This document shows positions 30,064 to 63,449 of a stretch of DNA of 64,000 bases, in pieces. Location: positions 179 to 64,178 of the forward strand of contig CAZDKL010000004.1 in the NCBI GenBank assembly GCA_964506185.1, written 5' to 3'. The notes under the pieces were generated by a model, which saw only the letters and a list, made by a program, of their open reading frames with translations, was not told the DNA's origin and did not search any database. How positions within the stretch are numbered: the first letter of the stretch is position 1; each line of letters opens with the position of its first letter. The position numbers and the translations under genes were made by a program. This DNA is from an uncultured Candidatus Peribacteria bacterium (GTDB lineage Bacteria; Patescibacteriota; Gracilibacteria; Peribacterales; Peribacteraceae).

Positions 30064-31062
30064 TTAGTTGTTTTTAAACAATGACCACAGCCAGCGCCAA
30101 AATCCGCCCTTTGATGAATCAGTATCATTATTAATCTGCGGCTTATCTTCAATACTTTCTACAGGCACCGATTCAATTTTCTCTAGCTCTGCACTACTAC
30201 TTACAATTGGCTGTGCACCAACCATAGGTGCTTCTTCTTGTGGATTGCATACATCGCCCCATAAGCCAGTTCTTTTCTCACGAGCTTCTTTCTCATCACT
30301 ATTGTAATCATCTAGTCTGGGATGTGGATATTTTTTGTAACTGTGTGCATATCCTTCTTTTATCATCTGTTTTCCAATATCTCTACCTAAATAATGAACG
30401 TAACGCAATAGGCGACCATATACATCGCGATTCTCTGCTGGATTTTTCACCAGCGTTACATACTTATCACCAATAAGTTGTTTAAGCTTTGCGCCAGCTT
30501 CTTTACCAAAGCATTCAACTGGCTTGCTAGGATGCACGGTCTCAGGTGAATCGATACCTATGATTCTCACTTTCTCTCTTTTATTATCACAAAAAAATGC
30601 AAAAGTATCTCCATCAATCACCTCGGATACTTGGGTCATGAAGCTGTTCACTTCGCAATCCAAGAGGCAATTATTTCCAATTTCCTTGTAACCATCGTTG
30701 CATAGCCAAACGTCAGTACCGTTGTTAGCTTTATGAGAATTGTCTGGCACTTTTGCACAGGACTGGCCATTCAATGATGGCAAATATCCTACATTACATT
30801 CACACAAACTGGCTGATTTATTATATTTTGCATTTGCGGGGCATCTCGGAGTTGTAGGAACATACTTAGGAGTAGGTGCATACGTAGGCGTTGGGGAACG
30901 ATACCCTCCATGACAATGCCTAGCATTCCATGTCTCACCCCAATAATCACATCTTGTTCTACAGTAATGACATCCATCTGAAGCAGTTCTACCAGGGTGT
31001 GCTTCTACTACGATTGGTAGAATTAATATTGCCAATGCAAGAATTAGTCTATTTATTGTCAT
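30064..31062 (-). CDS. Secreted thermonuclease (SNase-like) with a His/Cys-rich leader and EGF-like Cys modules
   Basis: Signal peptide. SNase core: VIDGDTFAFFCDNKREKVRIIGIDSPET...ECFGKEAGAKLKQLIGDKYVTL...DVYGRLLRYVHYLGRDIGKQMIKEGYAHSY...EAREKRTGLWG. Confidence 0.88.
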   Translation of the reverse strand: MTINRLILALAILILPIVVEAHPGRTASDGCHYCRTRCDYWGETWNARHCHGGYRSPTPTYAPTPKYVPTTPRCPANAKYNKSASLCECNVGYLPSLNGQSCAKVPDNSHKANNGTDVWLCNDGYKEIGNNCLLDCEVNSFMTQVSEVIDGDTFAFFCDNKREKVRIIGIDSPETVHPSKPVECFGKEAGAKLKQLIGDKYVTLVKNPAENRDVYGRLLRYVHYLGRDIGKQMIKEGYAHSYKKYPHPRLDDYNSDEKEAREKRTGLWGDVCNPQEEAPMVGAQPIVSSSAELEKIESVPVESIEDKPQINNDTDSSKGGFWRWLWSLFKNN

Positions 31063-32174
31063 AATTTAGAATAATCTTCTGTGAACTTATCTACCTTTTC
31101 CTGTAATGCAGGATCTCTCTCAGCTTTTGATAAAGCATCCATCTTCCAGGATACTTTACCTTGCTTCCTCAGATCTTCCATCATTTTAGTGGCACTATTT
31201 TGTGCTTCGGCAATCTGTGATCTACTCATTTTGCTTCGAGCTTCATCCATTTTTTCCTTTGCATCAGGTACCCCTTGAGATCTAGCAATACTCAACCAAA
31301 CATATGCAAGCACTTGATTCTTTGGCACACCAATTCCAAGTGCATACATATCACCAAGATGATATTGAGCAAGAGGATCACCCTGTTGTGCTGATTTACT
31401 TAACCATTTCGCTGATTCATTCCAATCTTCTGTGACACCAATTCCATTAAAATAATCCATTCCTACAGAGAATTGCGCATCCGAATTTCCATTTTCAGCC
31501 GCTTCCAGATACATCTCAAAAGCCTTAACATGATCTTGGGGCACTCCATAACCAAGGCTGTGCATTACTGCTAACTGATACAAAGCCTCAACATAACCCA
31601 ACTCAGTTGCTCTTTCGTATAATTGATTTGCTTTCGTGTAATCTTTTTTGACCCCCAAGCCACTCGTATATAGCTTACCTAATAAATATTGAGCAGATGG
31701 AAAATCTTGATCTGCAGATTTTTTGTACCAATAAGCTGCCTTTTTGTAATTCTGCGTTACTCCATTCCCACCCTGATGCATATAACCAAGCAAATACTGC
31801 CCAAATGGGCATTTATCTTTAGCTGATTTACGAGCCAATTTGATCGCTTTTTTATAATCTACATCAACACTTTGGCCTAAATAGTACATTGACGAAAGCA
31901 TTGATGTTGCAGCAGGGTCACCCAAATCATGAGCTTTCTTAAACCACTCAAGTGACTTGTCGAAGTTTTGTTCAATTCCCTTTCCTTCATAATATCGTCT
32001 GCCAATTTCAGCTACCACAGTCAAATCGCCTTCTTTTTCCTTATTAAATAATTCCTCCATCGTAAATGCATGCATCTCTTGATAATTTATATTATCAAAC
32101 ACACTACTATCACTATTAATAGTACAACTTGCACATAAGATTGTTATCAAGGCAATGACGGCGAGTCTTTGCAT
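31059..32174 (-). CDS. Sel1-repeat (SLR/TPR-like) lipoprotein
   Basis: Lipobox ITILCASC, then seven or more Sel1 repeats (e.g. AQYLLGKLYTSGLGVKKDYTKANQLYERATELGYVEA). It overlaps the nuclease gene by 4 nt. Confidence 0.88.
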   Translation of the reverse strand: MQRLAVIALITILCASCTINSDSSVFDNINYQEMHAFTMEELFNKEKEGDLTVVAEIGRRYYEGKGIEQNFDKSLEWFKKAHDLGDPAATSMLSSMYYLGQSVDVDYKKAIKLARKSAKDKCPFGQYLLGYMHQGGNGVTQNYKKAAYWYKKSADQDFPSAQYLLGKLYTSGLGVKKDYTKANQLYERATELGYVEALYQLAVMHSLGYGVPQDHVKAFEMYLEAAENGNSDAQFSVGMDYFNGIGVTEDWNESAKWLSKSAQQGDPLAQYHLGDMYALGIGVPKNQVLAYVWLSIARSQGVPDAKEKMDEARSKMSRSQIAEAQNSATKMMEDLRKQGKVSWKMDALSKAERDPALQEKVDKFTEDYSKL

Positions 32175-34167: not shown

Positions 34168-35022
34168 ATGCTCAGTAAAAGTGTGTTTCAGATCATTGCA
34201 GAGAAGCGTAAAGAACGGCATATTTCACTCAGCTTACTTGAAGAGAAAACAGGTAAAGATCGGGCTTCGATAATGAGATGGCAAAGGGGTGAATGCATGG
34301 TGCCAAAAAAAATGGATAGCATATTGGCAGAACTTTTTTATGATAATGTTCAGGATAGGAAAAAATTTATAGAGCATTGTAAATACTCTAGAGACAAAGG
34401 AAGAAAAGAAATGAACAGAAGGCGTAACAGACGCAAAAAGATGACAGAAGCAAGCAAATTATTTAAGGCTGATTTAAATTTGGGTTGGACATCATCAAGT
34501 GATGATAATGAATACAAATATTCTTATGCATCAGTAGTTGTTAGAAATAAAAAAACGGGGCAATTTATTTTGAATGTGTGTCACAGAACATTTCGCTTTT
34601 ACGAAGATGGATATTCAGAAGATGGAAAATTACCAAAACCTTTGTACCACAAGAGTGCCCTAGAACCATATATGAGATACTGTTCAAAAAATAAAATTGG
34701 TAAATTTGCTTTGTTTGATCTTGCAAAACGAGAGGTTGAAAAATCTGATATGTTTAAAGTTTCTAGTCCAGACTGGTTCCCTATTCCAGGAGGCAAGCCT
34801 ATCATTGTTGACTCATTAGAAATCGAGAAAATACAAAAGTTTTTGGAACGAGCGCATGATTATACTAGCGTTAAAAAGTTAAAATCGGATGCAAAAGACC
34901 TTAATACAAGATTAGATCACATAAGGTCTAGAGCGAGTGAGATGCCGAAGTGTAAAGATAAACTTTTAAAAAGTATTGATAATGCATGTATCTTAATTCA
35001 AGAAAAACTATCTGATGCCTAA
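34168..35022 (+). CDS. HTH-domain protein, divergent from the XRE gene (possible switch partner)
   Basis: N-terminus IIAEKRKERHISLSLLEEKTGKDRASIMRWQRGE. The C-terminal 200 aa are unassigned. Confidence 0.6.
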   Translation: MLSKSVFQIIAEKRKERHISLSLLEEKTGKDRASIMRWQRGECMVPKKMDSILAELFYDNVQDRKKFIEHCKYSRDKGRKEMNRRRNRRKKMTEASKLFKADLNLGWTSSSDDNEYKYSYASVVVRNKKTGQFILNVCHRTFRFYEDGYSEDGKLPKPLYHKSALEPYMRYCSKNKIGKFALFDLAKREVEKSDMFKVSSPDWFPIPGGKPIIVDSLEIEKIQKFLERAHDYTSVKKLKSDAKDLNTRLDHIRSRASEMPKCKDKLLKSIDNACILIQEKLSDA

Positions 35023-36511
35023 ATACGTTGCTTACCTCAGGCGTTCAACTAAAGATGAAAAGCATCAACAGTACTCCATAAGTGCTCAAGATAAGCTATG
35101 TAAAAAATATGCTAAGCAACACTCACTTACTATTGGGAAAATAGTTACAGAAGAACACAGTGCAAGAATGGCTGGTAAACGACCTAAATTTTTGGCAATG
35201 CTTGAGGATCTAGAACAAGGCAAATATGAAGGTGTTATTGTGCACAATGTTGATCGCTTACTTCGCTCCATTGGAGATTACGCTCTTATAGATACTCTAA
35301 GAACAAGTGGTACTGAGTTTCATTTTGTTGATGGTTCTTATCCTAATACTCCAGAAGGCAACATGATGCTTGGGATTAATGTTGTCTTTGCCAAATGGTA
35401 TGTAGAAAAGCTTGGCAAGGAAGTTAAGAAAGGATTCAAGGAATCGCTTGAGCAGGGTAGATACCCAGGTGAAGCACCAGTTGGTTATCTCGACAAAGGC
35501 AAGGGTATCAAAACTCCTGATCCTGTTTACGCACCTCTTGTACGCCAAGCATTTGAGCTATACGCCACAGGAGACTATTCATTGGATTCTCTTACAGCAG
35601 AAATGAGAAAGCGTGGATTGCGTACTAAGCGAGGTCAGAAGTATGGCAAACAACTTGTAAAGGGCTCATTGCACAGAATCCTCTCGAACCCTTTCTATTG
35701 CGGAAAAGTGTTAATGAAAGGGGAAGAATACGAAGGCGGACATGAACCAATCATTTCAAAAGACCTTTTTTATCGTGTAGAAAAACTCCTTCACTCAAAG
35801 AATACTTCATTCGTTTCGCGCAAACCATTTGCATACAGAGGCTTACTTCGGTGCTCATGTGGACAGATGCTTTCGCCTTATGAAAAGAAAGGACGTATTT
35901 ACTATGGATGCCATCAAAAGGGGTGTACCCAATCAACAACTAGGGAAGGGGTGATAGACGAAGCAATCAATAATATTTTGGATAAGTTGATGTTTACAGA
36001 TAAGGAACTTGAAGCAACTCGCAAGTCTATGAAGAAACTGGAGGCATTTGTAACCGAAGAGAGAGATACAAACTTGAAATCAATAATAGCCAGAAAAGAG
36101 AAGGTCAATGATCGCCTTGGTAAAGTAAGACAGCTTGTTATTGAAGGCACCTTTGGCAAAGATGAATATGAGGAAGAGAAAGACAAGATCGAAAAAGAGC
36201 TTTCAGATATTGCAGAGGAAGAGGAGCGTATTCAAAAAATTGAAGTAAAACGATTGGATGAAGTTTATGAGTTCTTAGAACTAACCAAAAAGGCATCTTC
36301 GTACTTCAAAAAGGGAAACCTTGAAGAGAAGAGACGTATCGCACAAATGGTATTCTTAGACGTGCAGATAACAGACAAGGAAGTGACTTCTTTTAGCCTG
36401 AATGAAGCTTTTGAGACTTTGAACAGGCGTCATGATCGATGTATCGGTGCGTATGGCGGGGCTGACGAGACTCGAACTCGCGACCTTCCGCGTGACAGGC
36501 GGACGTTCTAA
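35015..36511 (+). CDS. Large serine recombinase (integrase)
   Basis: Resolvase catalytic N-terminus (VAYLRRSTKDEKHQQYSISAQ...GVIVHNVDRLLRS), recombinase domain (GEAPVGY), Cys-rich zinc-ribbon region (LRCSCGQ...YYGCHQKGC) and a coiled-coil tail. The last 58 nt are antisense to tRNA-Asp. Confidence 0.9.
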   Translation: MPKYVAYLRRSTKDEKHQQYSISAQDKLCKKYAKQHSLTIGKIVTEEHSARMAGKRPKFLAMLEDLEQGKYEGVIVHNVDRLLRSIGDYALIDTLRTSGTEFHFVDGSYPNTPEGNMMLGINVVFAKWYVEKLGKEVKKGFKESLEQGRYPGEAPVGYLDKGKGIKTPDPVYAPLVRQAFELYATGDYSLDSLTAEMRKRGLRTKRGQKYGKQLVKGSLHRILSNPFYCGKVLMKGEEYEGGHEPIISKDLFYRVEKLLHSKNTSFVSRKPFAYRGLLRCSCGQMLSPYEKKGRIYYGCHQKGCTQSTTREGVIDEAINNILDKLMFTDKELEATRKSMKKLEAFVTEERDTNLKSIIARKEKVNDRLGKVRQLVIEGTFGKDEYEEEKDKIEKELSDIAEEEERIQKIEVKRLDEVYEFLELTKKASSYFKKGNLEEKRRIAQMVFLDVQITDKEVTSFSLNEAFETLNRRHDRCIGAYGGADETRTRDLPRDRRTF

Positions 36512-49878: not shown

Positions 49879-51483
49879 CTACCCCTTACTATTTCTCTTT
49901 ATAAGTCTCTTCCTCTGCATCGCAGTAAATAACTTCTTCCCCTGAGCAATGGAAATTTTTGCATTTAGCTTAACCTCACCTCCGTTTGCAGATGCATCTG
50001 GCATACCGGAGGTTTCATTAATACACTGAACTACTTCATCAACAGTTAATTCGCCTTGTGGCTTTAGAACCATATCAAGTTTTTTGGCTCCGTCTGCCTC
50101 CAGCATCGAATCAACATCGGTTATATCCTTTCCTCCTTCGCCTTTAAACTCAACATTCAACTTGTCTCGAGTGGTCCCCTTGCTATCGGTCGCATACCTT
50201 AGCAAGTTCACAGCCTTACCACGGTTTATCCAATCGCTTAAATCAACGCCCTGTTCATTTAATTGCTTTTGAAGCTGGAACATTTCCTCTTCATCTGCCG
50301 AAGCATCAAGGCGCATAAAACGAAAAGATGCACCGTCATATCTAATCTCCAATCCCTTATCTTCCCAATCCGAATTCATTTCCAACACGCGTTTAATAAC
50401 ACTTTGCTTCTGGTCTTCCGGACAATGATCAAACAGTGTATTTAGTTCGTACATAATACCTCTTCCTGTTTCGGTTCCCTGCGATTCAGTTTTGATATCT
50501 TTCAATAGTTGCTGTAACTCCTGCTCAAAAACTTTCGGATCTTCAACGCCCTTTGCTACCCAATCTATAGCCTCAGATGCTTCTGGTTGCCCCGTGGCAT
50601 CCACAGTGCGCATCGTTCTTCCATTCTCGGCTTCTGCCTGATACTTGTCATACATCAAATCAAACCATTTGTCTTCAGCTGCTGTAGTTTCTTGCGACAT
50701 GCTCTGATCGAATTGAGACTGTGCATTTTCTCTATTTTCTTCCCATAGCTCTCCAACTTGAGACATATGCACCGGTGTAGCATTCAACTTGCGCATGAAA
50801 CTGGTAACAGAGTTCGCCATAGAACCTGCAGCTCCACGCTCGATTTTTGCAACTCTTTGTTGCGCTGCTTCTCTGGATTCATCTTGGGCCTGCTCCACAG
50901 ACGCGCCGGAATTTAGCCTGCCTCTGATGTCGTTAACGAACTGCTTCTTTATTGGAGTTAAATGTTTTATCCATTCGTAAAAATTCTTTCCAACTAATTC
51001 TCTTTCTCCACCGGCCAACTGATCTGTTGCATGCTCGCAAAGCTCTTTTGCATCTCCACCTAATCTGGATTCCGCACTTTCAATAATATTTTCTCCTTTA
51101 ACCATTTTTTCGAATTCTTCCTCCCAATTCTTAACACTCTCCTGCGACTCTTCCTGTCCTTCTTGTTCTTTCTCCGGTCCCATTTCTTTCTCATCTCTTT
51201 TTTCTTCCACTTCTTCCATTGCCTCATTATCACTCGCTCCCATTTCTTCAACTGATTCATCCTCTCCCAATTCAGCCTTTGCTTTTTCTACCTTCGCTAA
51301 TTTATTGCCATTGCCTCCCGCATCCTTTTCAGCTTCATCTGCCTTCAGTCCGGTAAACTCCTGCAATTCCGCCAAAGTTGTTCCTTTAAACTCCACTGTA
51401 CCGCTTTCAAAACCTTCGTCGACTCCTTCGTCGACGCTATCGTTATTTTCGTTTTGCCCAAGCTGATCCGGTTTTCCACCCAT
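49879..51483 (-). CDS. Acidic hypothetical protein (534 aa)
   Basis: Long ORF with a Glu/Asp-rich N-terminal third. No family was recognised. Confidence 0.6.
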   Translation of the reverse strand: MGGKPDQLGQNENNDSVDEGVDEGFESGTVEFKGTTLAELQEFTGLKADEAEKDAGGNGNKLAKVEKAKAELGEDESVEEMGASDNEAMEEVEEKRDEKEMGPEKEQEGQEESQESVKNWEEEFEKMVKGENIIESAESRLGGDAKELCEHATDQLAGGERELVGKNFYEWIKHLTPIKKQFVNDIRGRLNSGASVEQAQDESREAAQQRVAKIERGAAGSMANSVTSFMRKLNATPVHMSQVGELWEENRENAQSQFDQSMSQETTAAEDKWFDLMYDKYQAEAENGRTMRTVDATGQPEASEAIDWVAKGVEDPKVFEQELQQLLKDIKTESQGTETGRGIMYELNTLFDHCPEDQKQSVIKRVLEMNSDWEDKGLEIRYDGASFRFMRLDASADEEEMFQLQKQLNEQGVDLSDWINRGKAVNLLRYATDSKGTTRDKLNVEFKGEGGKDITDVDSMLEADGAKKLDMVLKPQGELTVDEVVQCINETSGMPDASANGGEVKLNAKISIAQGKKLFTAMQRKRLIKRNSKG

Positions 51484-51593: not shown

Positions 51594-51670
51594 AGGCGCG
51601 TAGCTCAGTTGGCTAGAGCACTGGTCTCCAAAACCAGGGGTCGAAGGTTCAAATCCTTCCGCGCCTGCCA
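51594..51670 (+). tRNA. tRNA-Trp (CCA), CCA end encoded
   Basis: AGGCGCGTAGCTCAGTTGGCTAGAGCACTGGTCTCCAAAACCAGGGGTCGAAGGTTCAAATCCTTCCGCGCCTGCCA folds as a cloverleaf with anticodon loop CTCCAAA. Confidence 0.93.
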
Positions 51671-53311
51671 CTCAATACAGAGATTTGGGTCTAATGGCCG
51701 CTTCTCTAATGTTTTAGAAACCGTATCATTACAATCAGATGATTCTAACCTTGCCTTTTGATTTGCTCCCGCAAGCGGGAACTTTGCGATAGTTGCGAAA
51801 GGTTCTTGATACTCAGCGGTCACTTTGCAGTCTTTTAGCACTAGGTTCGAACAAACAAGTAAAATAACCCCTCTCTTCTCCTCACATGAAGCCATAGCAA
51901 GATTATCCGGTAGGTTAATTAATGCTTCCACAAACGACTGGCAGTCATCAATCCATTGGGTGCCATCTCCATGAATAGCGCCGAGCTTGCTCTGAATTGA
52001 TTCTAAATCCTCGTTCAGCGCACGCTTTTGTGCAAGGTATTCTTCATCTGATAAGAGTTCTCCACTGACATTATTGGGTGATATTTTAAGCTGTAGTAGG
52101 CCATCTAGCTTCTGTTTGCAGGCATTGTACTGAGACTGCAGTTTCCTTCTTACTGACTCAGAAGATTTAGCTTCCGACTTATGGAGCTCACGGACTTTAT
52201 CACAGGCTGGCTTAATAAATGCTTCTGGAATGGACAAGTCTGTAAGTATACAAAGCAGTTGCTCCTGTAATTGTTCCTCGCGTATCCACTTGCGCTGATC
52301 ACATGAACCTTTTTTGTAAGTGCAGTGGTAGTACACGTGCCCTTTCTGCCACTCTGCAGTAATTGCACAACCACATTCACCGCATCGCATAAGACCACTG
52401 TAAGAAAACTGATGTCTGCGATGTCTTCCCTTAGATTTCCTTGCAAGTGCATGCTGTACCCGGTCAAACAGCTCTCTGGAAATTAAAGGGTCATGTTGAA
52501 TGTTTTCATTGTATATTTTTCCCTGGTAACGTATAGCTCCATAAAAGTAGGGGTTGGAGAGCAAATTTGTAAGAACACACTTGCTTAATTTCTTTTTACC
52601 ATTGCGAGTTTCTAGGCCGATCCCCTGAGCATAATTTTGGAGCCCGGCTAACGTATACACCCCCTTAGATGCCTCTTCGAATAACATTCTCAACAACTTC
52701 CCATCTATTGGGTCAATCTCCTCCCGTTTCAATGGCCTTTCCAGCTGTTCCAGTATTTGCTGCTTTTGTGGTGAGTATTGGGCTGGAGTAATGCGACCTG
52801 CCCTATCAATATTTAGAAAGCCCAATGGGACAGTCCCTGGAAGCTCGCCTTTAAGCAATTTGGATTTAATATCTCGCTTTACGAATTGGCTGTTGTCATC
52901 ACTACTTTTCTTTGCCATAGCGAAGTGTATCTGCATCATGAACTTATCGTCAGAGTGGCCTGTAAATTCACTCTCAGGTGTAATGATTTTCTTTATGACA
53001 TCATCATCCATCATGTAAATGATGCGCCCACCATCAAAGCTGTTCCTTGCCAAGCGGGTAAGGTGGTAGGTAAGTATGCAATCGACCTCGCCGGCTTCTA
53101 TCCTATTTAGCATCTTGTTAAATAATGGACGTCCTTTCTTGTACGCGCTTTGGCTCTCAACGTAGATGTCGACTATTTCGATATTATGATTCTCGGCATA
53201 TTCCAATAAGGTGCGCTTTTGGGCGTCATTACTTAGCACCTGTCGATCCTCACGTTCTTGGCTACGTCTGCAGTATGCAATTAGGCGGGTTGGGGATTCT
53301 TGATAGGACAT
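51605..53311 (-). CDS. Large serine recombinase (integrase)
   Basis: LIAYCRRSQEREDRQVLSNDAQ...CILTYHLTRLARN (resolvase domain), recombinase domain (GTVPLGF) and a Cys cluster (MRCGECGC...YYHCTYKKGSC). The last 66 nt are antisense to tRNA-Trp. Confidence 0.9.
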   Translation of the reverse strand: MSYQESPTRLIAYCRRSQEREDRQVLSNDAQKRTLLEYAENHNIEIVDIYVESQSAYKKGRPLFNKMLNRIEAGEVDCILTYHLTRLARNSFDGGRIIYMMDDDVIKKIITPESEFTGHSDDKFMMQIHFAMAKKSSDDNSQFVKRDIKSKLLKGELPGTVPLGFLNIDRAGRITPAQYSPQKQQILEQLERPLKREEIDPIDGKLLRMLFEEASKGVYTLAGLQNYAQGIGLETRNGKKKLSKCVLTNLLSNPYFYGAIRYQGKIYNENIQHDPLISRELFDRVQHALARKSKGRHRRHQFSYSGLMRCGECGCAITAEWQKGHVYYHCTYKKGSCDQRKWIREEQLQEQLLCILTDLSIPEAFIKPACDKVRELHKSEAKSSESVRRKLQSQYNACKQKLDGLLQLKISPNNVSGELLSDEEYLAQKRALNEDLESIQSKLGAIHGDGTQWIDDCQSFVEALINLPDNLAMASCEEKRGVILLVCSNLVLKDCKVTAEYQEPFATIAKFPLAGANQKARLESSDCNDTVSKTLEKRPLDPNLCIEWQARKDLNLRPLVLETSALAN

Positions 53312-53443: not shown

Positions 53444-55342
53444 TTATAGCAGATCATCTTCGTTGTCTCTAATAATCGTTTTAAACTGCTCCTTGGTCGA
53501 ATATACCCACGGAGAATTCTCAATATCTTGGTCTTCCTTCTCGCGGTTAAGAATCCCAAGGTGGTAAAGCTCTTCCAAGTATCTTTTAATTGTCTTAGTA
53601 CTCATGGTCGTGATTCCTTCAGCTACATCTCTTCCTGTCAATTGGTCGGCAAAATTAAACTGGCGCAATACCTCAGCACGCTGAACAGGCATAGACGATA
53701 GTGCCACTTTTCGTATAGTGTCCACTTCAACTTGTGTTATACCTGTTTTAGCCCGTACAGTTGCAAGCGATCGGCAAAGAGTTCTTATCTGATGCAAAGC
53801 CCGAAAGGGTTCTTCTATCTGAACTCCAATAACATCCCTATAAACCACCTCCTTCCCCTCGTCGTCGACAAACTTGTTAGTAGTGGAGTCTACAATCCCA
53901 CGAGTACGAGCGATGAATTGGGCTATGTTGTTTAGCTGTTTTTTAATCTCCGGTTCTTCTGGTTCAAGCTGTAGGCCATGCTTTTTGATATGCTCGCAAA
54001 TCGAAATAACAAGGCTTATTGATGCCTTTGCAGCCTCAATACTTATTTGTTTGAAGTTGTCGTTCCAAGCATTGCTTAAGCATTCTTCCCGCTCCTCACT
54101 TGTAAGCTCAGGTATTCGTAGAGTAAGAAACCTTGGACCAACCATATTCATGTAGTTTTGGCGCATCTTAAGGCCTTGAGGCGTCACGCAGCCCACATGG
54201 GCAAATGTAGCCTTGTAACGGATTGTGCCCCGCGATCCACTGTGCTTGGAAAACTCTCCGTCATAAATCGACACCAGATCTGACAGCAGTTTCTTTACAG
54301 TTTCTTCGCTTCTGCCAAAGAAAGAGGTGTAATCCTTAACAATAAAACAACAACCATCCAGTTGCGGTAATAGATCTTGAGGATTCTCACTTTCCTTCAT
54401 TCCGGATATAAACGGAGCGCTGGTCATCACATCTATTGCAATAGTATCCGGTGCATAACGAAGCAAGGATACAAGCTCAGTCTTGTTGGAGCTCGGTGGT
54501 CCGACTAAAAGCAGCCAGAGCGGGTTCTTTTTCACAAGTTGCTTGCTTATATATGTTGCCAATGTAATCTCAACAACGTAATCATGAACGAACCCAAGTT
54601 GTCGGGTAAGTTCAAGCACATCTGCAAGTGAAGCGGGAGGCAAATTAGAAAGGTCCCTGAATTCCATAGGAGTTTGTGTCCCGCTTGCTTTATTAAGTAG
54701 GTCCTCTGGTATGTTGCCCACCAACTTTAATAGTCGGTCGGGCAATTCATCCTGCTCTTGCCTACATTGACACGCAAAATCAGCCATATCTCCGCCCTTT
54801 TTAAATTCTATTGGCCAATGAATCATCCGTAGTTTAATGTCAGGTCTTTTATCCAAAACTAGTTTTACTGCCGCCTCCATTGCTTTCCATCCCGCTTGGT
54901 CATTGTCGAATGACAACACAAGCTCGGCATTATTCGGGACATGCTCAAGGCATGGTTCAATGGATGTGGATGCACCAGTAGTTACTGTTTGAGCAGACAT
55001 TCCGTTCTGGATAAGAATTAAACAATCAAGCTCGCCTTCGGTTTGCCACACTCGATCAGGATTCTCTTCTTTCCAATAACTTGGTCCAAAAACACCGTTC
55101 CGTTTTCCGGGATTAAAAAGCCATTTCTTCTTTGGATCGCCAATTTTCTCTGATAAAGCAACTCGCAGTTTCCAAGCCGTAGTTTTGCCGTTAGCCTTCG
55201 CATTGGGGATGCAGATGTGCCCCTTGCTATCCAAAATAGTATAGGCAATTCCTATAAGGTCTATTACCTCGTCAGTAAGGCACTTTTTGGTTTTAAGTAA
55301 TTCTCGTTCTTTATCGGGCAATGATTCTATTTTTAGGTTCAT
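53444..55342 (-). CDS. Toprim-domain primase fused to a P-loop NTPase (primase-helicase) with a C-terminal wHTH-like region
   Basis: Toprim: VWQTEGELDCLIL...LVLSFDNDQAGWKAMEAA. Walker A-like LLLVGPPSSNKTE and Walker B-like CCFIVKDYT. Confidence 0.75.
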   Translation of the reverse strand: MNLKIESLPDKERELLKTKKCLTDEVIDLIGIAYTILDSKGHICIPNAKANGKTTAWKLRVALSEKIGDPKKKWLFNPGKRNGVFGPSYWKEENPDRVWQTEGELDCLILIQNGMSAQTVTTGASTSIEPCLEHVPNNAELVLSFDNDQAGWKAMEAAVKLVLDKRPDIKLRMIHWPIEFKKGGDMADFACQCRQEQDELPDRLLKLVGNIPEDLLNKASGTQTPMEFRDLSNLPPASLADVLELTRQLGFVHDYVVEITLATYISKQLVKKNPLWLLLVGPPSSNKTELVSLLRYAPDTIAIDVMTSAPFISGMKESENPQDLLPQLDGCCFIVKDYTSFFGRSEETVKKLLSDLVSIYDGEFSKHSGSRGTIRYKATFAHVGCVTPQGLKMRQNYMNMVGPRFLTLRIPELTSEEREECLSNAWNDNFKQISIEAAKASISLVISICEHIKKHGLQLEPEEPEIKKQLNNIAQFIARTRGIVDSTTNKFVDDEGKEVVYRDVIGVQIEEPFRALHQIRTLCRSLATVRAKTGITQVEVDTIRKVALSSMPVQRAEVLRQFNFADQLTGRDVAEGITTMSTKTIKRYLEELYHLGILNREKEDQDIENSPWVYSTKEQFKTIIRDNEDDLL

Positions 55343-55343: not shown

Positions 55344-55643
55344 TTATTGAGGGAAATAAGATAAAAGAAAATCTACCGCTTCCATGAGGTTGCAATCGCG
55401 TACATGCATAACAAGATCAATTGGAGATCCGCCTGTGACGCCTCCAAAATCTTTTCCGGAGAAGCGGTAGAAAGAATTTGTCTTCTCGAATACTGTTAGT
55501 GATGAAGGTTCTTTGGGGTTGTTTGGATCTTTCATTTGCCAAGTATTGAAACCAACTCGGATCAGATCCAAGTTAAGAATGTCCGCAACATACATGATGG
55601 GAATCTGTCGCAGCCTCTGGAAATCAATCTCTTTCTTTGCCAT
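55344..55643 (-). CDS. Primase zinc-finger-like (CHC2-like, cysteine-less) small protein
   Basis: IPIMYVADILNLDL......PSSLTVFEKTNSFYRFSGKDFGGVTGGSPIDLVMHVRDCNLMEAVDFL mirrors the DnaG/CHC2 N-terminal layout, but the Zn ligands are replaced. Confidence 0.5.
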   Translation of the reverse strand: MAKKEIDFQRLRQIPIMYVADILNLDLIRVGFNTWQMKDPNNPKEPSSLTVFEKTNSFYRFSGKDFGGVTGGSPIDLVMHVRDCNLMEAVDFLLSYFPQ

Positions 55644-55827
55644 GACACTTACAAGATGGAAACTCAGAGTCGACGTGTAGGTGCGCCCCCCACTTATCAG
55701 CTAATTGCATGATTGCATCATAGAAATCCTGATAGCTTTGATCTGATTGTTTTGAGCCGTTGTTTGTAATAGAATTTGACATGTTAAAATGATTAGAAAA
55801 TAAGCTCCTCCGCTTGACCCATTGCAT
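55624..55827 (-). CDS. Small hypothetical protein
   Basis: ORF in the same minus-strand operon. No family was recognised. Confidence 0.4.
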   Translation of the reverse strand: MQWVKRRSLFSNHFNMSNSITNNGSKQSDQSYQDFYDAIMQLADKWGAHLHVDSEFPSCKCHGKERD

Positions 55828-55829
55828 AC

Positions 55830-55988
55830 TTAGGGGGGAGCTCTTTTCTTATGCCCAAGGTCAATCACAAACTTGATTAGTTGAGCTAGCCGTTCCTCAT
55901 ATTCTTTGGCTTGCTCTGGGGTAAGCTGGCAGCCATATAACTGATTCCAGCATTGTCTAAAGTTGCCGCTTTTGTCTTGTGCATTCAT
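55830..55988 (-). CDS. Possible 52-aa protein (below the ORF-track cutoff)
   Basis: My own translation: MNAQDKSGNFRQCWNQLYGCQLTPEQAKEYEERLAQLIKFVIDLGHKKRAPP. It shares an ATGA start/stop overlap with the upstream gene. Confidence 0.35.
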   Translation of the reverse strand: MNAQDKSGNFRQCWNQLYGCQLTPEQAKEYEERLAQLIKFVIDLGHKKRAPP

Positions 55989-56221
55989 TGATGGCAATCG
56001 AAAACAAGCCCCTTAGCCTCTTTGTAAGACATAAGAAGCGATCGTGCCGGGCATACCAGATCCCCGCTCCAAAAACCTTGTACGGCCTCTTGAAGCCCTT
56101 CAGAATCTTCAAAAACGAACGTTACACGTCCTGAGTCGGCCGATCTCTCGATTCCTGTAACTCTAAAGCCCTCATGAATGCATGTGGCGGCCAGTGGAGT
56201 TGAATAGGTCTTAAATGGCAT
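55985..56221 (-). CDS. DUF5659-like small protein
   Basis: FKTYSTPLAATCIHEGFRVTGIERSADSGRVTFVFEDSEGLQEAVQGFWSGDL follows a pattern I recall for DUF5659 (unverified). Confidence 0.5.
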   Translation of the reverse strand: MPFKTYSTPLAATCIHEGFRVTGIERSADSGRVTFVFEDSEGLQEAVQGFWSGDLVCPARSLLMSYKEAKGLVFDCHQ

Positions 56222-56413
56222 ATTCGCGGCAAATTCAAATAAAAAAGAGCCCCAAGTAGGGGCTCTGTACTTACATTACTTATGTGCTAAATAATGAAAA
56301 AGGAAACGTAGTACATGATTTTTTCAGATTCAAAATTGAAGCCCTAAGAAGCATTTTGCTTGATTACCATGTCATGGGTGTATAATCCAGCACTGATCTT
56401 CCCCCTTCTTTTT

Positions 56414-57763
56414 ATGAAAAAGAGTGTAACTCAAGTGATGTTTACTTGGCTTTTTGTCTCTCTGATATTGGCTCCATCAATTGTAAATGCCGACGCTGGT
56501 AGCTGCGCGCGTGATTGTCTCGATGATGCGATCAGGAGGGGTATGGGAATTGGTAGTGGCTTACATATGAGATGTGTAGAAGATTGTGCACTTGAGGAAG
56601 AGAGACAGAAAGAATACAACGATAAAATGCTTGAATTTGAACTCGAAAGAATACAAAGAGAGGAGCAACAGGCACAGGAGCAAAGAGAGATGGAAGAAAG
56701 AATGCGCGAGCTTGAGGCAGAGAAACATCGCATAAAAATGGAGAGCCTACAAAGAGAACTCGATTCGCAACAGAGACAGCAATCTCAACAGCCTTCATCG
56801 CCCTCAATGAGCAATGATGATTATATGAGACAGTACTATGACAACAAGACCCCAGCAGTTAAATGCCCCAAGAATTCAAGAGGTGCTACTGCAACCGAGA
56901 AGACGGAGAAGCCAGGGGTGATGTGCATATGCCTTGTAGGGTTTGGACTCGATGAATCTGGTACCCGTTGTGTCGAAAAGAAATATGCTCAACCGGCCAA
57001 GAAAGCACAAACTGAAACTAAGGAAGCTGATGACAATTGCATGCCTCATGCAAAGCTGTCAGCAGATGGCATGTATTGCGATTGTGACGAAGGTTACGAA
57101 GCAGATGCAACAGGTGCATATTGTTTCCCAATAAGAGAGGATGCGCAGTCTACATACAATGGTAATCAAAAGAGTAATTGGAGTGGGGAGCTGCCAACTG
57201 ACACTGAGGAAAATGCATGGTATAGCAACAACCTGAAGCATTTTCTTGGACAGGGTGTAATCAAAGAAGATAAGCCATTCAGGCCATCTGAATCTGCAAC
57301 TCGGGGAGAACTCATCGAGTTGATTGTTAAATCTTTGGGAATTGCCTTAAACGAAATAACACACATAACAGAACCTAGCTTTGATGATGTGCCAGGATAT
57401 CAACAGGACGCATTTGAAAAAGCAGCAGTCAGGGGTATCACAAAGGGTGATGGCGATTGTTTGGGAACACATCCTTGTTATGCGTATCCGGACAGAAAGA
57501 TTAACCGCGCAGAGGCTGCAACTTTGATATTTAGAGCATTTAACCTTGGTGGCGCTGGTGTAACTGGAAAGGGGCCTACTTTTTCGGACGTTGAGCCGGG
57601 TTCTTGGTTTGCAGAAACGATACGAACAGCTGGTTATTATTGCATTCTAAGGGGTGACTCTGGATCAAGTAATGTAAGACCCGGTGGCAATCTAAATAGA
57701 GCCGAGATGATTACGATGGTAAGGCGTGCAGAAGGGCAGGAGAGGTATCCGAACTGCCAATAA
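56414..57763 (+). CDS. Secreted coiled-coil / Cys-rich protein with three C-terminal SLH modules
   Basis: Signal peptide MKKSVTQVMFTWLFVSLILAPSIVNA, a Glu/Gln/Arg coiled coil and EGF-like CxCxxG[FY] modules. The SLH modules are colinear with the host S-layer anchor (PSFDDVPGYQQDAFEKAAVRGITKGDGDCLGTHPCYAYPDRKINRAEAATLIFRAF; FSDVEPGSWFAETIRTAGYYCILRGD..VRPGGNLNRAEMITMV). Confidence 0.85.
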   Translation: MKKSVTQVMFTWLFVSLILAPSIVNADAGSCARDCLDDAIRRGMGIGSGLHMRCVEDCALEEERQKEYNDKMLEFELERIQREEQQAQEQREMEERMRELEAEKHRIKMESLQRELDSQQRQQSQQPSSPSMSNDDYMRQYYDNKTPAVKCPKNSRGATATEKTEKPGVMCICLVGFGLDESGTRCVEKKYAQPAKKAQTETKEADDNCMPHAKLSADGMYCDCDEGYEADATGAYCFPIREDAQSTYNGNQKSNWSGELPTDTEENAWYSNNLKHFLGQGVIKEDKPFRPSESATRGELIELIVKSLGIALNEITHITEPSFDDVPGYQQDAFEKAAVRGITKGDGDCLGTHPCYAYPDRKINRAEAATLIFRAFNLGGAGVTGKGPTFSDVEPGSWFAETIRTAGYYCILRGDSGSSNVRPGGNLNRAEMITMVRRAEGQERYPNCQ

Positions 57764-57797: not shown

Positions 57798-58250
57798 TCA
57801 TTCGTCATCCCAATTTTGGGTTGCCTCCTGAGTATTATTCTTCACCTTTTCATTAAGACCAGCATCATCCCAATCAGCGATTACTCGGTTTTTTGAGCAT
57901 TCCATAATCATCTGGGTAATTGTAAGATCTCCGTCCACAGAATGCACAAATCTGGGCGAATATTGCTTCTTACATCTTCTTTCAAGTACTTTTAGAGCCA
58001 AGTTACTGTCTTCTTTAATCCCTTTTGTAATCGACTTCTTGGCTTCGATTTCCAGATTCATTTGTGCAATGCGCATTTCGTCAGAAAAGTCCTTATCCTT
58101 CAGGTGTCGGTAATATGTGTCTTTGCTTATACCGGCATAATCGCAGGCTTTTTCTACGGTTAAATCCAGTTTCAGAGCCTCAGTGAGTTTTGCGATAGTA
58201 GCGGGTGTTATAACTGATGGACGACCTGTTTTTGCTTTAGAAGTTGTCAT
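57798..58250 (-). CDS. Terminase-small-subunit-like HTH protein
   Basis: KTGRPSVITPATIAKLTEALKLDLTVEKACDYAGISKDTYYRHLKDKDFSDEM...ALKVLERR. ATG 58250 is preferred over TTG 58286. Confidence 0.6.
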   Translation of the reverse strand: MTTSKAKTGRPSVITPATIAKLTEALKLDLTVEKACDYAGISKDTYYRHLKDKDFSDEMRIAQMNLEIEAKKSITKGIKEDSNLALKVLERRCKKQYSPRFVHSVDGDLTITQMIMECSKNRVIADWDDAGLNEKVKNNTQEATQNWDDE

Positions 58251-58301
58251 GAGTAAATGATATTTATCTTTACTCGGGTAAGGCAAGGAAGTGTAGTGTG
58301 G

Positions 58302-61300
58302 TTATTTAAGGCGGTGTTTTGTAAAAAGCTTATTTAACGACGATCCTCCATTAAATCCTCTGGATCCTCTATATAGTGCTTTATTTATGGTACGCCAGGT
58401 CTCACCACCACTATTTGGTATCTCACCGCTTTTTTCATTTGGCCATTTTCCATTTGTTTTATTAAAATCTTTAGCCCATTTAATGATTTTAGATTCAGAT
58501 AAACTTGGTAGATTTCTGCTATTTCTCAATCCTCTTTCCTTGCTCAATAACTTTGCAAGTGAACTGCCACTTGGTAAACCCCTAACGCCATTCTGAAGAT
58601 ATGTATCAATACTAAGCCAAGTATACTGGGGCATTTCTTTTATTTTTCCACTTTTTGTATTTGGCCACTTCCCATACTTTTTCTTGTAAGCATCGGCCCA
58701 TCCTAAAACTTGATTTACAGTTAGTGGTTTTTGCTGATGCTTGTGTTCTTTTAACCCCTTGCTTGCTAGCAAGTTAGCTAACGTTGTCTTTTGTAAACCC
58801 CTATTTCCTCGGAATAAAGCACCATCGACATCACTCCATTTCTCGTTAGGGCAATCAATTATCTTGCCTGACTTAGCAGTAGGCCATTTCCCTGTCTTTT
58901 TATGATGATTTTTAGCCCACTCAATTATTTGATCATACGTCAGTATTGGCAAAGCCCTTTTAACTCTTAGCCCCCTGTTTTTAGCAAAGACTTTTGCCAA
59001 AGACATATCTTTTGGAAGTTGTCTTGTACCTCTTATTAGAGCTGTGTTAATACCTGTCCAAGTTTCTTCTGTTCCTTCAATTTTTCCAGATCTTGTATTG
59101 GGGTACTCTGCATTTTTTTTCTTATAATCATCTGCCCATTTTAATATTTGCTCAACAGATAAATCAGGTAATTCTTTAATATGTCTTACTCCTCTATGTT
59201 CTTTTAATAACTTTGCCAACGAAGAATTCTTTGGTAATCCTCTAGAACCTAAATTCAATGCGCCATCAACAATGGGCCAAGTATCTTCTGGAGACTCATC
59301 TATACTTTCAAACAGTTTTGCATGTGGCCAGTCTCCATGTTTCTTTTTATACGAATCCATCCATTCTAGGATTAAATCTATTTTTAGATCAGCCTTTTTA
59401 GCCCCAACTTTAATAATCTTAACAAGAAGATTCTGTTCAAACTCTCTTGGTAAAACTGTGTGAATGTCGACTTTTACTTGCGACGGCATTCTCACCTTTC
59501 CGCTTGCCCTACGTTTACCAACTTCCATTCTATATCCCTCCAGCTCTTCTTTAAGCGACTCGTCGTGCTGCTGAAGAGCTTTCAAAACATATCCCACAAT
59601 CTTAAATGCAGAACTATCCAATGCCTCCTCCTCATCATCAGGATTTATAAAAACAGGTACTAGAATGGTTCCAGCCTTGTTGTCGGGGGTTTTCCTAATA
59701 GCCCGCCCCACAGCCTGCACAATGTCTATTATTGAGCTCTTGGGATCAACAAAAGCAATTCCATCCAAGGCAGGTATATCCACTCCTTCCTTAAGGCAAG
59801 CACAGTTTGTAAGAAGCGCACGTGTTGTTTTTGGTAGCGCTTTGAAATCCTCTAATAAGGTCTTCCTCTGCGATGCGGGAGTTTTTCCGGAAATATGATT
59901 GAACCAAAGGTCCTTTGCCGGTTTTCTCTTCATTAGCTTAATAGTACTAGGCAGAGAGTCTTCCTTATTCTCATCAATGAAGTCCTTTGCCTTCTTAACA
60001 GACGAATGGAAGGTTATCATCTTCGTTATGTCATATTTCTTCATCGCCTTTGCTATAGCCATCTGTGTTGCCATAGTGCGCGCATCAGAAAGGATTCCGC
60101 TTCTAGTCTTAATTAGTTTGCCTTTTTCAACCATCTCCTTGGCTTCCTCTTCAGACACAACAACAATGGCCACCTGATAGTTGTTAAGTAAATTCTGCTT
60201 AATGGCCTGCCCAAAAGAAAGCTCACTAAAAACAGGTCCGTAAAGCCCCTCGTCATCCATTGATGCTATTTCAAAGTCCACTTCGCCCGCTTTGTCCTTA
60301 ATAACCTGCTTAATGTACCTCTCGGTTGCCGTCATGAAGAGCCGCTTCTTGCCACGAATATTTTTGTCATCCAGTGCAAAAGTGAATTGCCTGCCCATAT
60401 ATCCTGTACACCTATGCGCTTCGTCAAAAATAATTAAATCAAAGTCGGGACAACCCTCCTGAGCTTCTTTTAGTAGCTTGGAGCTCTGGTATGTACAAAA
60501 CACGATAGTTGGCTTGCTTGTCTTTCTTTTGAGGAATCCATGAATCTCCTGAGCATCCGTAGTTACATCGATGCCATATGAAGAGGCCGATTCAGATTCG
60601 CCGCTATCTGTTGTTTCATCCGAGCAGATGATCAGATATTCATAATCATCTCTTCGCTCTTTGTTCCAGGACTCGACCGTTTGTGCAACAAGCGAGATTG
60701 AAGGAAATAGAACAAGTGTCCTTTTTGGTTTCATCTTTTCCTTGACCCAAAGAGATATAAGCGTCTTACCGGTACCACATGCACGAATGAGTCTGCCCCT
60801 GTTATGCTTTTTAAAACCCTTCAGCACTGCGTCAATAGCCTTCTTCTGATCGGGTCGGGGATTTTTTTTAGGTTCCCTTTTCGTTTTTTCTTTTAACTTA
60901 GTTGGCCACGGAGTCTTCTGTGCCTTTAGATCGCCACGCATTACAAGAACGCACTTCTTTGATAGCGATGAAAATAACTCCTTCGCGTTTGGACCGATTT
61001 TGTCGGTAGTGGCTATGAGCATCCTCTTGTCGATCACCTTTCGTTCGGATTCAGAAATAAAAGAATCTATTCCGCTTTTTGGGATCACATAATCCGGGCT
61101 GTAATTCTTAACCTGAATTGCCCAGATCTTTCCCTGTTTGTCCTCAGCTATCAGGTCAATTCCTTTATCAATTCCCCAGTTCTTCGGCCACTCTTCCCAC
61201 AACCAAACGTTTTGGAATTGTGGCTTAAACTCAGTTCTAGCTTCAATTAGACGCTTCTTTATAACCTTTTCAAAGGCTTTGCCGTAGGCTGTTCCCTTAG

Positions 61301-61367
61301 CTTCCTTTCTTAGTTTTGTTTCCAAATACTCAAAGCTGCCCTCTTTGAATTTTATTGCCTTAGTCAC
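58302..61367 (-). CDS. Mrr-like PD-(D/E)xK nuclease fused to an SF2 (ResIII/DEAH) helicase and five C-terminal ~73-aa repeats
   Basis: N-terminus GIDLIAEDKQGKIWAIQVKNY (Mrr_cat-like). Walker A ACGTGKTL and DEAH box IIFDEAHRC. Helicase C motifs TNCACLKEGVDIPALDG...VQAVGRAIR. The five repeats follow W.....KK.G.WP..KSGKI.....W..I..AL..G.RGLP..SSLAKLL...RG. Confidence 0.85.
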   Translation of the reverse strand: MTKAIKFKEGSFEYLETKLRKEAKGTAYGKAFEKVIKKRLIEARTEFKPQFQNVWLWEEWPKNWGIDKGIDLIAEDKQGKIWAIQVKNYSPDYVIPKSGIDSFISESERKVIDKRMLIATTDKIGPNAKELFSSLSKKCVLVMRGDLKAQKTPWPTKLKEKTKREPKKNPRPDQKKAIDAVLKGFKKHNRGRLIRACGTGKTLISLWVKEKMKPKRTLVLFPSISLVAQTVESWNKERRDDYEYLIICSDETTDSGESESASSYGIDVTTDAQEIHGFLKRKTSKPTIVFCTYQSSKLLKEAQEGCPDFDLIIFDEAHRCTGYMGRQFTFALDDKNIRGKKRLFMTATERYIKQVIKDKAGEVDFEIASMDDEGLYGPVFSELSFGQAIKQNLLNNYQVAIVVVSEEEAKEMVEKGKLIKTRSGILSDARTMATQMAIAKAMKKYDITKMITFHSSVKKAKDFIDENKEDSLPSTIKLMKRKPAKDLWFNHISGKTPASQRKTLLEDFKALPKTTRALLTNCACLKEGVDIPALDGIAFVDPKSSIIDIVQAVGRAIRKTPDNKAGTILVPVFINPDDEEEALDSSAFKIVGYVLKALQQHDESLKEELEGYRMEVGKRRASGKVRMPSQVKVDIHTVLPREFEQNLLVKIIKVGAKKADLKIDLILEWMDSYKKKHGDWPHAKLFESIDESPEDTWPIVDGALNLGSRGLPKNSSLAKLLKEHRGVRHIKELPDLSVEQILKWADDYKKKNAEYPNTRSGKIEGTEETWTGINTALIRGTRQLPKDMSLAKVFAKNRGLRVKRALPILTYDQIIEWAKNHHKKTGKWPTAKSGKIIDCPNEKWSDVDGALFRGNRGLQKTTLANLLASKGLKEHKHQQKPLTVNQVLGWADAYKKKYGKWPNTKSGKIKEMPQYTWLSIDTYLQNGVRGLPSGSSLAKLLSKERGLRNSRNLPSLSESKIIKWAKDFNKTNGKWPNEKSGEIPNSGGETWRTINKALYRGSRGFNGGSSLNKLFTKHRLK

Positions 61368-63215: not shown

Positions 63216-63449
63216 ATGCCAACTGCAAAAACAACTTTGCGGCTTACTCTCTTTAAAGTTGAGAAAACCAAGTGGAAAGCGGCAGCGAAGCGTCACCGCC
63301 TCAGGCTTTCTGAATTTGTCAGATGGACTGTAAATACCAAGGTCAGGATTCCGACGATAGATCTGGCGGAGAAGCTCGAGAAAAAGAGACCGGAGCAGAT
63401 GTCGATCATTGATGTTACGAAATATGATGCTCAAACTTCAATGTTTTAA
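63216..63449 (+). CDS. Ribbon-helix-helix (CopG/MobC-like) protein
   Basis: TLRLTLFKVEKTKWKAAAKRHRLRLSEFVRWTV has an RHH-type beta-strand plus helix signature. Confidence 0.5.
   Translation: MPTAKTTLRLTLFKVEKTKWKAAAKRHRLRLSEFVRWTVNTKVRIPTIDLAEKLEKKRPEQMSIIDVTKYDAQTSMF

Follow-up and report, generated by a model that had tools for sequence, protein, structure and literature searches.

A predicted wall-anchored SLH protein carried by an integrated, satellite-like element in a Candidatus Peribacteria genome

The SLH gene and the layout of its product

The stretch analyzed here, referred to as the window, comprises 64,000 nucleotides (64 kb) of contig CAZDKL010000004.1 from an uncultured Candidatus Peribacteria bacterium (assembly GCA_964506185.1). 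It contains a gene (56414..57763, + strand) for a predicted secreted protein of 449 aa plus stop, which would be held on the cell wall by a C-terminal triple S-layer homology (SLH) module and which lies within an integrated mobile element beginning at a tRNA-Trp gene. The extent of the gene was taken from the list of open reading frames (ORFs), from its family of homologs and from one public gene call of 449 aa (L122). The ORF listing gave a 467-aa ORF (56360..57763, +) with a TTG start at 56360, but this longer form is probably not the one used. The ATG at 56414 (MKKSVTQ...), from which a sequence-only reading of this DNA had counted the gene, is likely the true start and results in a Sec-type signal peptide. 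It was preferred because the protein then opens with MKKS, a hydrophobic core and IVNA/DA, because the longer ORF would contain a perfect TATAAT (56381-56386) ahead of the ATG, and because the public call has the same length.

The layout of the protein was derived from a family alignment of 22 sequences and an AlphaFold2 model with a mean pLDDT of 77.9 (all parts on the + strand). The signal peptide (aa 1-26, 56414..56491) was read from the sequence, where the hydrophobic core leads to ...IVNA/DAGSC, and includes a modelled helix at aa 5-18; hydrophobic N-terminal segments were found in most family members. The predicted mature N-terminus carries a twin CX3C motif in a helix-loop-helix (aa 31-58, 56504..56587; C31, C35, C54 and C58; modelled helices 29-41 and from 50), which is conserved in the relatives P0002, P0013 and P0041 and whose cysteines would pair as disulfides. 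It runs into a long Glu/Gln/Arg-rich helix (aa 50-125, 56561..56788; pLDDT up to 96), a predicted stalk or coiled coil of ~75 residues, and then into a Gln/Ser-rich linker (aa ~126-150) of low confidence in the model. Two four-Cys modules follow. Module 1 (aa 151-186, 56864..56971; C151, C171, C173 and C186) has the pattern CP.NSRG...C.C..G[FY]..D....C and short beta strands in the model, and module 2 (aa 209-237, 57038..57124; C209, C222, C224 and C237) was delimited from the family alignment, the short strands of the model and the positions of its cysteines. The triple SLH module (aa 260-441, 57191..57736) consists of SLH1 (57191-57349), SLH2 (57374-57547) and SLH3 (57575-57736), and the chain ends in a tail, YPNCQ (aa 445-449, 57746..57760), which is conserved in the family alignment and in which C448 is invariant. 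This residue probably pairs with C410 of SLH3. The protein has 16 Cys in four groups of four, as expected of a disulfide-bonded extracytoplasmic protein.

The signal peptide and the Glu/Gln/Arg-rich helical part had already been recognized in the sequence-only reading, and the model placed the latter as a helix at aa 50-125. The same reading had described EGF-like Cys modules. The Cys modules were found, but their membership in the epidermal growth factor (EGF) family was not borne out, as each holds four cysteines rather than six and all scores were below threshold. An EGF domain was rejected on 15.8 bits for Pfam EGF (cut-off 21.5), 15.6 bits for FXa_inhibition (cut-off 33.4) and Foldseek matches to EGF-type structures with E > 1. 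No named family in Pfam, NCBIfam or PHROGs covered the whole protein, the sole PHROG match being to a family of unknown function over the SLH part. Mean pairwise identity within the family was 50% for the SLH part and 20% for the N-terminal part; a conserved anchor is combined with a variable ectodomain across the family.

The C-terminus is a genuine SLH trimer, in agreement with its first assignment. Pfam SLH scored 38.1 bits (cut-off 20.8) and detected the third repeat alone, and a profile built from the family matched the SLH region of Sap (6BT4, 3PYW) over all three repeats (E 1.4e-11). The AlphaFold2 model of aa 260-441 had a pLDDT of about 90 (mostly 88-97), and in Foldseek it superposed on 3PYW with a TM-score of 0.84 and a root-mean-square deviation of 2.6 Å over 189 columns. 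Scores for Sap and SpaA as a whole were 0.74-0.84, and 15 of their entries, including SpaA-SLH complexes with pyruvylated N-acetylmannosamine, were matched at E < 1e-3. The residues of SpaA and Sap SLH domains that bind the pyruvylated ligand are Arg43 (of TRAE), Trp13 and Gly29 (of GIIxG) (PMC6081394), and corresponding residues are present in the element protein. The TRAE-type arginines of all three repeats (R297, R365 and R429) were invariant in 22 of 22 family members; W269, W398, G345 and G414 were also invariant, Trp and Gly each being retained in two of the three repeats. No gene for a CsaB-type pyruvyl transferase was found among the scanned ORFs of the window.

Within SLH2 there is a Cys-containing insert (GDGDCLGTHPCYA, 57446..57484, +) of 7 extra residues compared with Bacillus Sap, with C349 and C355 invariant in all 22 family members. 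It is located after the GIIxG-like motif, i.e., after the Gly29-equivalent of SLH2, and would thus adjoin the putative ligand groove of that repeat, where it may affect specificity. The sequence-only reading had singled out this stretch (GDGDC.G.HPCYA) as an unusual feature common to the element protein and a chromosomal S-layer-like protein. It is unusual relative to Bacillus Sap, but not peculiar to the two proteins, since a regular expression for the strict pattern matched 55 of 61 homologs and 74 of 80 genome loci. As judged from these alignments, the SLH trimer is a Peribacteria-wide variant with a Cys-stapled SLH2 insert and a second putative Cys pair that links SLH3 to the YPNC tail.

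Upstream of the gene there is a GC-rich hairpin (56246-56266, AGAGCCCC-TACTT-GGGGCTCT) with a T-run after it on the minus strand. It is located between the promoter region of the SLH gene and the start of a leftward operon that opens with a DUF5659 gene, and could act as an insulator of the two divergent units.

The element and its relatives

Searches returned 262 SLH relatives in genome contigs, of which the best 80 loci were examined; their source names were Candidatus Peribacteraceae or Peribacteria, which belong to the Peregrinibacteria of the Candidate Phyla Radiation (CPR). The genomic context was compared for nine independent family members (window/L004, L001, L002, L005, L006, L009, L010, L012, and L040), and all nine adjoined an integrase, a replication gene or both. 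Serine recombinases were present in seven of the nine, with a tRNA gene at the recombinase 3' end in six of those, and a gene similar to a small terminase subunit (TerS) was close by in eight. In the window, L001, L005, L006, and L040 the TerS-like gene was directly downstream of and convergent with the SLH gene, and in L001, L005, and L040 this neighbor is a homolog of the window's own TerS-like protein.

The elements differed in their parts. That of the window (L004) has a serine recombinase at tRNA-Trp, a primase and a TerS-like gene. A serine recombinase was likewise found at tRNA-Phe in L002, together with RepO and DnaB, a helix-turn-helix (HTH) gene and Terminase_2; at tRNA-Gln in L006, with a primase, HTH and TerS-like genes; at tRNA-Thr in L009, with a primase, DUF5659, GP3_package and a diversity-generating retroelement (DGR); at tRNA-His in L010, with AIPR, HTH and TerS-like genes; and at tRNA-Asn in L040, with DUF5659 and TerS-like genes. 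In L005 the serine recombinase ran to the contig end and was accompanied by RepO and a primase/DnaB gene, a TerS-like gene and a second SLH protein. L012 had a tyrosine integrase, Replic_Relax and PemK. L001, a 5.9-kb contig on which no integrase was seen, carried a primase remnant, a 99-aa protein, an Xre-type HTH gene and a TerS-like gene. Among the cargo of the related elements were AIPR, SocA_Panacea, PemK and a DGR.

The C-terminal-SLH type was limited to 4 of the 80 best genome loci (L014, L015, L016, and L040). N-terminal-SLH proteins were encoded in two further elements, L017 and L018, whose recombinase and primase were 51% and 54% identical, respectively, to those of the window, and in L017 the SLH gene occupied the equivalent slot. 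Taken together, these contexts suggest that the family is probably a consistently element-borne accessory gene of integrative Peribacteria elements of ~10-12 kb, most of which would integrate at tRNA genes. The gene family was undescribed so far, and represents a modest variation on known themes.

In the window, the placement of the gene within an integrated mobile element, as claimed from the sequence alone, was confirmed by its neighbors. The left end is marked by the integration site at tRNA-Trp (51594..51670, +; ARAGORN and Rfam), which is overlapped by the 3' end of a large serine recombinase gene (51605..53311, -; Pfam Resolvase, Recombinase and Zn_ribbon_recom; PHROG integrase, E 3e-62). 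A tRNA and a recombinase arranged alike were seen in 8 related elements. Next are a Toprim primase or replication protein (53444..55342, -; Pfam Toprim_2; PHROG primase/helicase), which is conserved in related elements, and three small leftward genes (55344..56221, -), i.e., a 99-aa protein conserved beside the primase, a 67-aa protein and the DUF5659 protein (55985-56221). To the right of the SLH gene, and convergent with it, is the TerS-like HTH protein (57798..58286, -; PHROG 4102, terminase small subunit, E 1.6e-16). Homologs of the latter also occurred on IMG/VR contigs, and on the phage contig L100 the homolog was directly followed by the large terminase subunit (TerL) and portal genes. 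A 1021-aa Mrr-nuclease and SF2 helicase (58302..61367, -; Pfam Mrr_cat_2, ResIII and Helicase_C) matched PADLOC REase_MTase_IIG (E 1e-120) over the N-terminal ~660 profile positions only and has no methyltransferase part; it is probable defense cargo of a restriction-like kind. Three predicted lipoproteins on the + strand (61345-62079; 62058-62492, KTSC; 62522-63130) were recognized from lipobox-like LTAC, LTAC and FTAC after hydrophobic N-termini, read from the sequence, and gave weak matches to lipoprotein-signal profiles; two have coiled-coil-like segments. With the SLH protein, the element would thus encode four predicted envelope proteins.

Capsid, portal and TerL genes were absent from the element ORFs in Pfam and PHROG scans, and no capsid or TerL gene was seen in the related elements. 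With its integrase, replication module and lone TerS homolog, the element resembles, in gene content, phage satellites of the phage-inducible chromosomal island (PICI) type. The housekeeping genes topA, HU and KhpB begin about 3-5 kb past 63.6 kb, which suggests an element size of about 12 kb. Near this end, a 77-aa ORF (63216..63449) looks ribbon-helix-helix-like by eye. The intergenic DNA after it, at about 63470-63530, is unusually rich in G, and one public assembly (L130), seen via the right-hand 130-aa protein, is interrupted at 63408. The region 63216-63530 may mark the right end of the element.

Several features of these elements were recorded in passing. The C-terminus of the Mrr-helicase consists of about five tandem ~70-aa repeats (W..K.G.I....E.W..I..AL..G.RGLP..SSLAKLL). 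The recombinase 3' end overlaps an opposite-strand tRNA in both elements of the window (Asp and Trp) and in six related ones, the tRNAs elsewhere being Phe (L002), Gln (L006/L007), Thr (L009), His (L010/L016), Gln (L017) and Asn (L040), and in L018 a tRNA-Leu lies about 70 nt from the recombinase. This suggests an attachment site inside the 3' end of the recombinase gene. The DGR of L009 (10844-13527) is complete, with a reverse transcriptase, bAvd, a template repeat (~12270-12386) and a variable repeat (~12768-12883), and the two repeats differ at coding-strand adenines. The SLH protein was rejected as its target, the variable repeat being at the 3' end of a separate 257-aa gene. Further SLH proteins near the family gene (L005, 8148-9467; L002, 18513-19883) are of the canonical type and not of the Cys-insert type. 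The L002 protein combines CP.NS...C.C..GY four-Cys modules with a canonical C-terminal SLH, and that of L005 has a Cys-containing C-terminal region in common with the N-terminal-SLH proteins P0010 and P0019. The IMG/VR contig with the closest TerS homolog (L094, 44%) has almost no ORFs >100 aa between 7500 and 14500 in genetic code 11, which hints at an alternative genetic code.

Comparison with the chromosomal S-layer-like protein

The window contains a second SLH protein, encoded on the chromosome at 10025..14329 (-), with a likely start at M64 of a 1497-aa ORF (10025..14518) and its SLH region at 13682-14242. Pfam detected SLH (33.2 bits, cut-off 20.8) and Big_5 in this protein, which is an ortholog of a ~1400-aa N-terminal-SLH protein that occurs as a single copy in each genome, at 62 Peribacteria loci. 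These orthologs made up 62 of the 80 best genome loci, and their SLH regions were on average 82% identical to that of the window (range 70-98%). The first Peribacteria genomes were noted to contain S-layer genes (PMC4736985), and the label S-layer-like is reasonable for this protein.

The colinearity described in the sequence-only reading was reproduced. BLASTP of the element ORF against the host ORF gave one colinear alignment of 182 aa with 76 identities (42%), 143 bits and E 3e-40, joining residues 280-458 of the 467-aa ORF to residues 94-270 of the 1497-aa ORF, so that the C-terminal ~185 aa of the element protein correspond to the N-terminal triple SLH region of the host protein. Both peptide pairs quoted at the time were recovered, the G-D-G-D-C-x-G-x-H-P-C-Y-A stretch occurred in both proteins, and the anchor lies at opposite ends of the two chains, at the C-terminus of the element protein and at the N-terminus of the host protein. 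No SLH regions beyond these two were found by tblastn of the window.

The same reading had gone on to propose that the element captured its anchor from the host S-layer gene or co-evolved with it. Pairwise identities gave no specific tie to the host. When 60 homologous SLH modules were ranked by BLASTP against the element module, the host S-layer protein came about 45th (41.8%), and the closest were the C-terminal-SLH proteins P0003 (54%), P0002 and P0004 (50-51%) and a trypsin-like peptidase (P0009, 54%). Identity of the element module to the S-layer orthologs of 62 other species was 41.0 ± 1.2% (range 38.9-43.4), and the value for its own host falls within this distribution, 18 of the 62 being equal or higher. 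In a second element and host pair from one metagenome-assembled genome (L020 vs. L038), identity was 60.1%; the other species gave 58.3 ± 1.5%, 3 of 61 scoring higher than the pair, and there was no clear host-specific signal.

Phylogeny did not indicate a recent domain transfer either. In the neighbor-joining tree the host module was placed amid the S-layer orthologs and the element module amid the C-terminal-SLH proteins, and the S-layer clade, with the element protein outside, had a bootstrap of 198/200. At the DNA level (blastn) the two SLH modules shared a 17-nt match at most, and G+C at third codon positions (GC3) was lower in the element module (0.37) than in the host module (0.55). With equidistant identities, a low rank of the host, separate clades and no DNA match, the proposed capture or co-evolution was not upheld. 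No capture signal was detected, and the outcome was the one named beforehand as refuting a specific relationship, specificity having been judged across the lineage and, for this genome, within the 64 kb covered.

The Peribacteria SLH module occurred in at least 130 proteins, at N-terminal, internal or C-terminal positions and in at least five architectures, namely S-layer-like proteins with Big_5, trypsin-like peptidases, NHL-repeat proteins, N-terminal-SLH proteins with a coiled coil, and the element family. Sequence comparison thus presents the SLH trimer as a generic Peribacteria wall anchor, apparently old and vertically inherited in its own family and not copied from the neighboring S-layer gene. 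That two wall proteins of one lineage have this module in common is expected, and their similarity is ordinary.

Proposed role, rival explanations and remaining features

The homology, the fold, the conservation of motifs, the element context and the lack of a host-specific tie were observed, and they are most naturally read as pointing to an element-encoded protein displayed on the wall. The protein would be exported by the Sec pathway and held non-covalently on a peptidoglycan-linked wall polymer by its C-terminal SLH trimer, with the twin-CX3C hairpin, the ~75-residue helical stalk and the two four-Cys modules pointing outward from the anchor. Its gene is a single rightward unit, with the leftward replication and integration operon on one side and the TerS-like gene on the other. 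When expressed from the integrated element, the protein would take up wall-polymer sites under or within the S-layer and alter the surface that the cell presents. It is most likely a wall-anchored surface-conversion factor. The cargo has a surface and defense theme: the window element carries the Mrr-helicase and three predicted lipoproteins, and its relatives AIPR, SocA_Panacea, PemK and a DGR. Tentatively, and as the leading candidate among the roles considered, the altered surface may hinder the adsorption or entry of competing phages or elements, by superinfection exclusion or receptor masking, a suggestion to which we would give less than an even chance.

A role as an adhesin, in which the stalk and Cys modules attach the cell to a partner or surface and the element spreads as fitness cargo by aiding attachment, is a doubtful but serious alternative. 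A wall anchor, a helical stalk and a disulfide-rich head are a typical adhesin layout, Cys-rich extracellular proteins of Peribacteria have been proposed to function in attachment (PMC4736985), the ectodomain is variable, and the L009 element has a DGR that diversifies another protein. Against this, no adhesin domain was detected by Pfam and other profile scans, and the position of the gene next to the replication and TerS modules stays the same despite differing cargo, which suggests a role tied to the life cycle of the element rather than optional cargo. A part in transfer or release, e.g., as the wall-binding component of lysis or particle release, would find a parallel in a prophage endolysin with a C-terminal SLH domain (LysBT1; PMC12285257) and suit the TerS-like neighbor. 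However, Pfam, NCBIfam and PHROGs revealed no catalytic domain, the protein has its own signal peptide and stalk, unlike lysins, and TerS-bearing phage contigs had no SLH homolog, so that this role seems very unlikely.

Two other explanations concern the origin of the gene. It could be an ordinary chromosomal SLH gene beside, or trapped within, the element and unrelated to it, given that SLH proteins are abundant in the lineage (the 262 relatives) and that the right boundary of the element is undefined. Yet the gene is located between the replication operon and the TerS-like and helicase genes, all nine independent homologs lie in a like context with differing integrases, tRNA targets and replication modules, and the C-terminal type makes up 4 of the top 80 loci, compared with 62 S-layer orthologs; such an explanation is hardly credible. 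A recent capture of the host S-layer anchor, or co-evolution with it, by which the element would insert its protein into that S-layer or compete with it, is just as improbable. Colinear modules with 42% identity, a common Cys insert and the same wall polymer presumably bound by both are in its favor, but the element module is as distant from its own host as from the other 62 species (41.8% vs. 41.0 ± 1.2%), the host ranks about 45th of 60, the S-layer clade (198/200) excludes the element protein, there is no DNA similarity, GC3 differs (0.37 vs. 0.55), the insert is lineage-wide, and the L020/L038 pair had no clear signal (60.1% vs. 58.3 ± 1.5%).

Some results weigh against the view of the protein as the surface factor of a mobile, satellite-like element. 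The N-terminal part alone (233 aa) matched no protein at E ≤ 1e-3, and the SLH protein matched no defense model of PADLOC-DB v2. At the right end, neither a direct repeat of the tRNA-Trp 3' part nor a tRNA fragment of ≥18 nt (≤3 mismatches) was found in the window or in L004. A search for element-free strains brought up none: the exact left-flank protein (49879..51483) adjoined element genes at 8 of the 8 places listed (19 of 23 contigs), with no empty site among them for the window copy. The satellite reading depends on the TerS homolog and the absent structural genes, in elements whose limits are approximate. A control in which 30 element proteins had no tblastn match (E < 1e-5) within ±10 kb of any of the 62 S-layer loci used a query set drawn from the elements themselves. 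Scans of IMG/VR with the family alignment and with the primase returned no relatives, so that the link to phage biology is indirect. Finally, we infer export, wall binding, expression and the biological role from the predicted protein.

For the surface-conversion factor proposed here, the nearest structural relatives are Sap of Bacillus anthracis (3PYW/6BT4) and SpaA of Paenibacillus alvei (6CWC etc.), which likewise have three tandem SLH repeats forming one pseudo-threefold module. The TRAE-type Arg is kept in all three repeats and the equivalents of Trp13 and Gly29 in two. The element protein differs in that its SLH module is C-terminal instead of N-terminal, with the motifs TRGE/NRAE/NRAE, in having the 7-residue SLH2 insert, which holds two invariant Cys, and a further invariant Cys pair that would join SLH3 to the YPNC tail, and in being encoded by a mobile element. 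CwpV of Clostridioides difficile, which is chromosomal and phase-variable, has a triple wall-binding module (CWB2) and a variable exposed part, and is reported to protect against phages. A wall-anchored protein with a variable surface part is a functional analogy for exclusion; however, CWB2 is not SLH, CwpV has no coiled-coil or Cys modules, and there is no sequence relationship. The Ltp lipoprotein of Streptococcus phage TP-J34 and PrgA of pCF10 are element-encoded, surface-tethered proteins that block the entry of related elements, and PrgA has a helical stalk with a C-terminal wall anchor. They differ in their lipid or LPXTG anchors and in their hosts, which are Bacillota and not CPR, and have no sequence similarity to the element protein; searches of PADLOC and Pfam brought up nothing of this kind.

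The element itself is like PICIs in its site-specific integration, primase, TerS without TerL or capsid, estimated size of ~10-12 kb and defense-type cargo. It differs in having a large serine recombinase whose gene overlaps the tRNA, and in that no helper phage is known for it. The endolysin LysBT1, encoded by a prophage, has an amidase catalytic domain and a C-terminal SLH (PMC12285257). It is alike as a mobile-element protein that reaches the wall by a C-terminal SLH, and differs in its amidase domain, the window protein having a signal peptide, a stalk and Cys modules and no catalytic domain. The literature searched contained no report of satellites or prophages of this kind in Peregrinibacteria or CPR, nor of element-borne SLH proteins there.

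As CPR bacteria are uncultivated, their mobile elements and their interactions with phages have hardly been explored, and element-encoded surface proteins are rarely traceable from sequence alone. The SLH family may serve as a sequence marker for finding mostly tRNA-integrating, satellite-like elements and for asking how they affect the envelope, through phage exclusion or attachment. SLH would serve Peribacteria as a general means of display, open to proteins of the host and of the elements in both chain orientations and built on a disulfide-stapled lineage variant. A broader view, which we consider unlikely as a whole but worth stating, is that these elements are CPR phage satellites and that the SLH stalk protein is a satellite surface factor docking on the wall polymer of the S-layer. 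It would remodel the envelope, exclude helper or competing phages or alter the attachment of possibly episymbiotic cells, with the Cys-stapled insert tuning the anchor to the Peribacteria polymer.

The window also contains a second element, element-1, at about 25000-36530, with a low GC content of 0.36-0.38. It ends at a serine recombinase (35015..36511; 35015-36530 with tRNA-Asp). It encodes an SNase secreted-nuclease-like protein (30064..31062) and a protein with Sel1 repeats (31059..32174); there is also a TerS-like stretch (~32335-32649), and many of its ORFs gave no family match. In tblastn of the window, no SLH protein was found in it. At the left edge of the window there is a partial 23S rRNA gene (1-2090, -), which matches positions 1-1791 of the Rfam LSU_rRNA_bacteria model.

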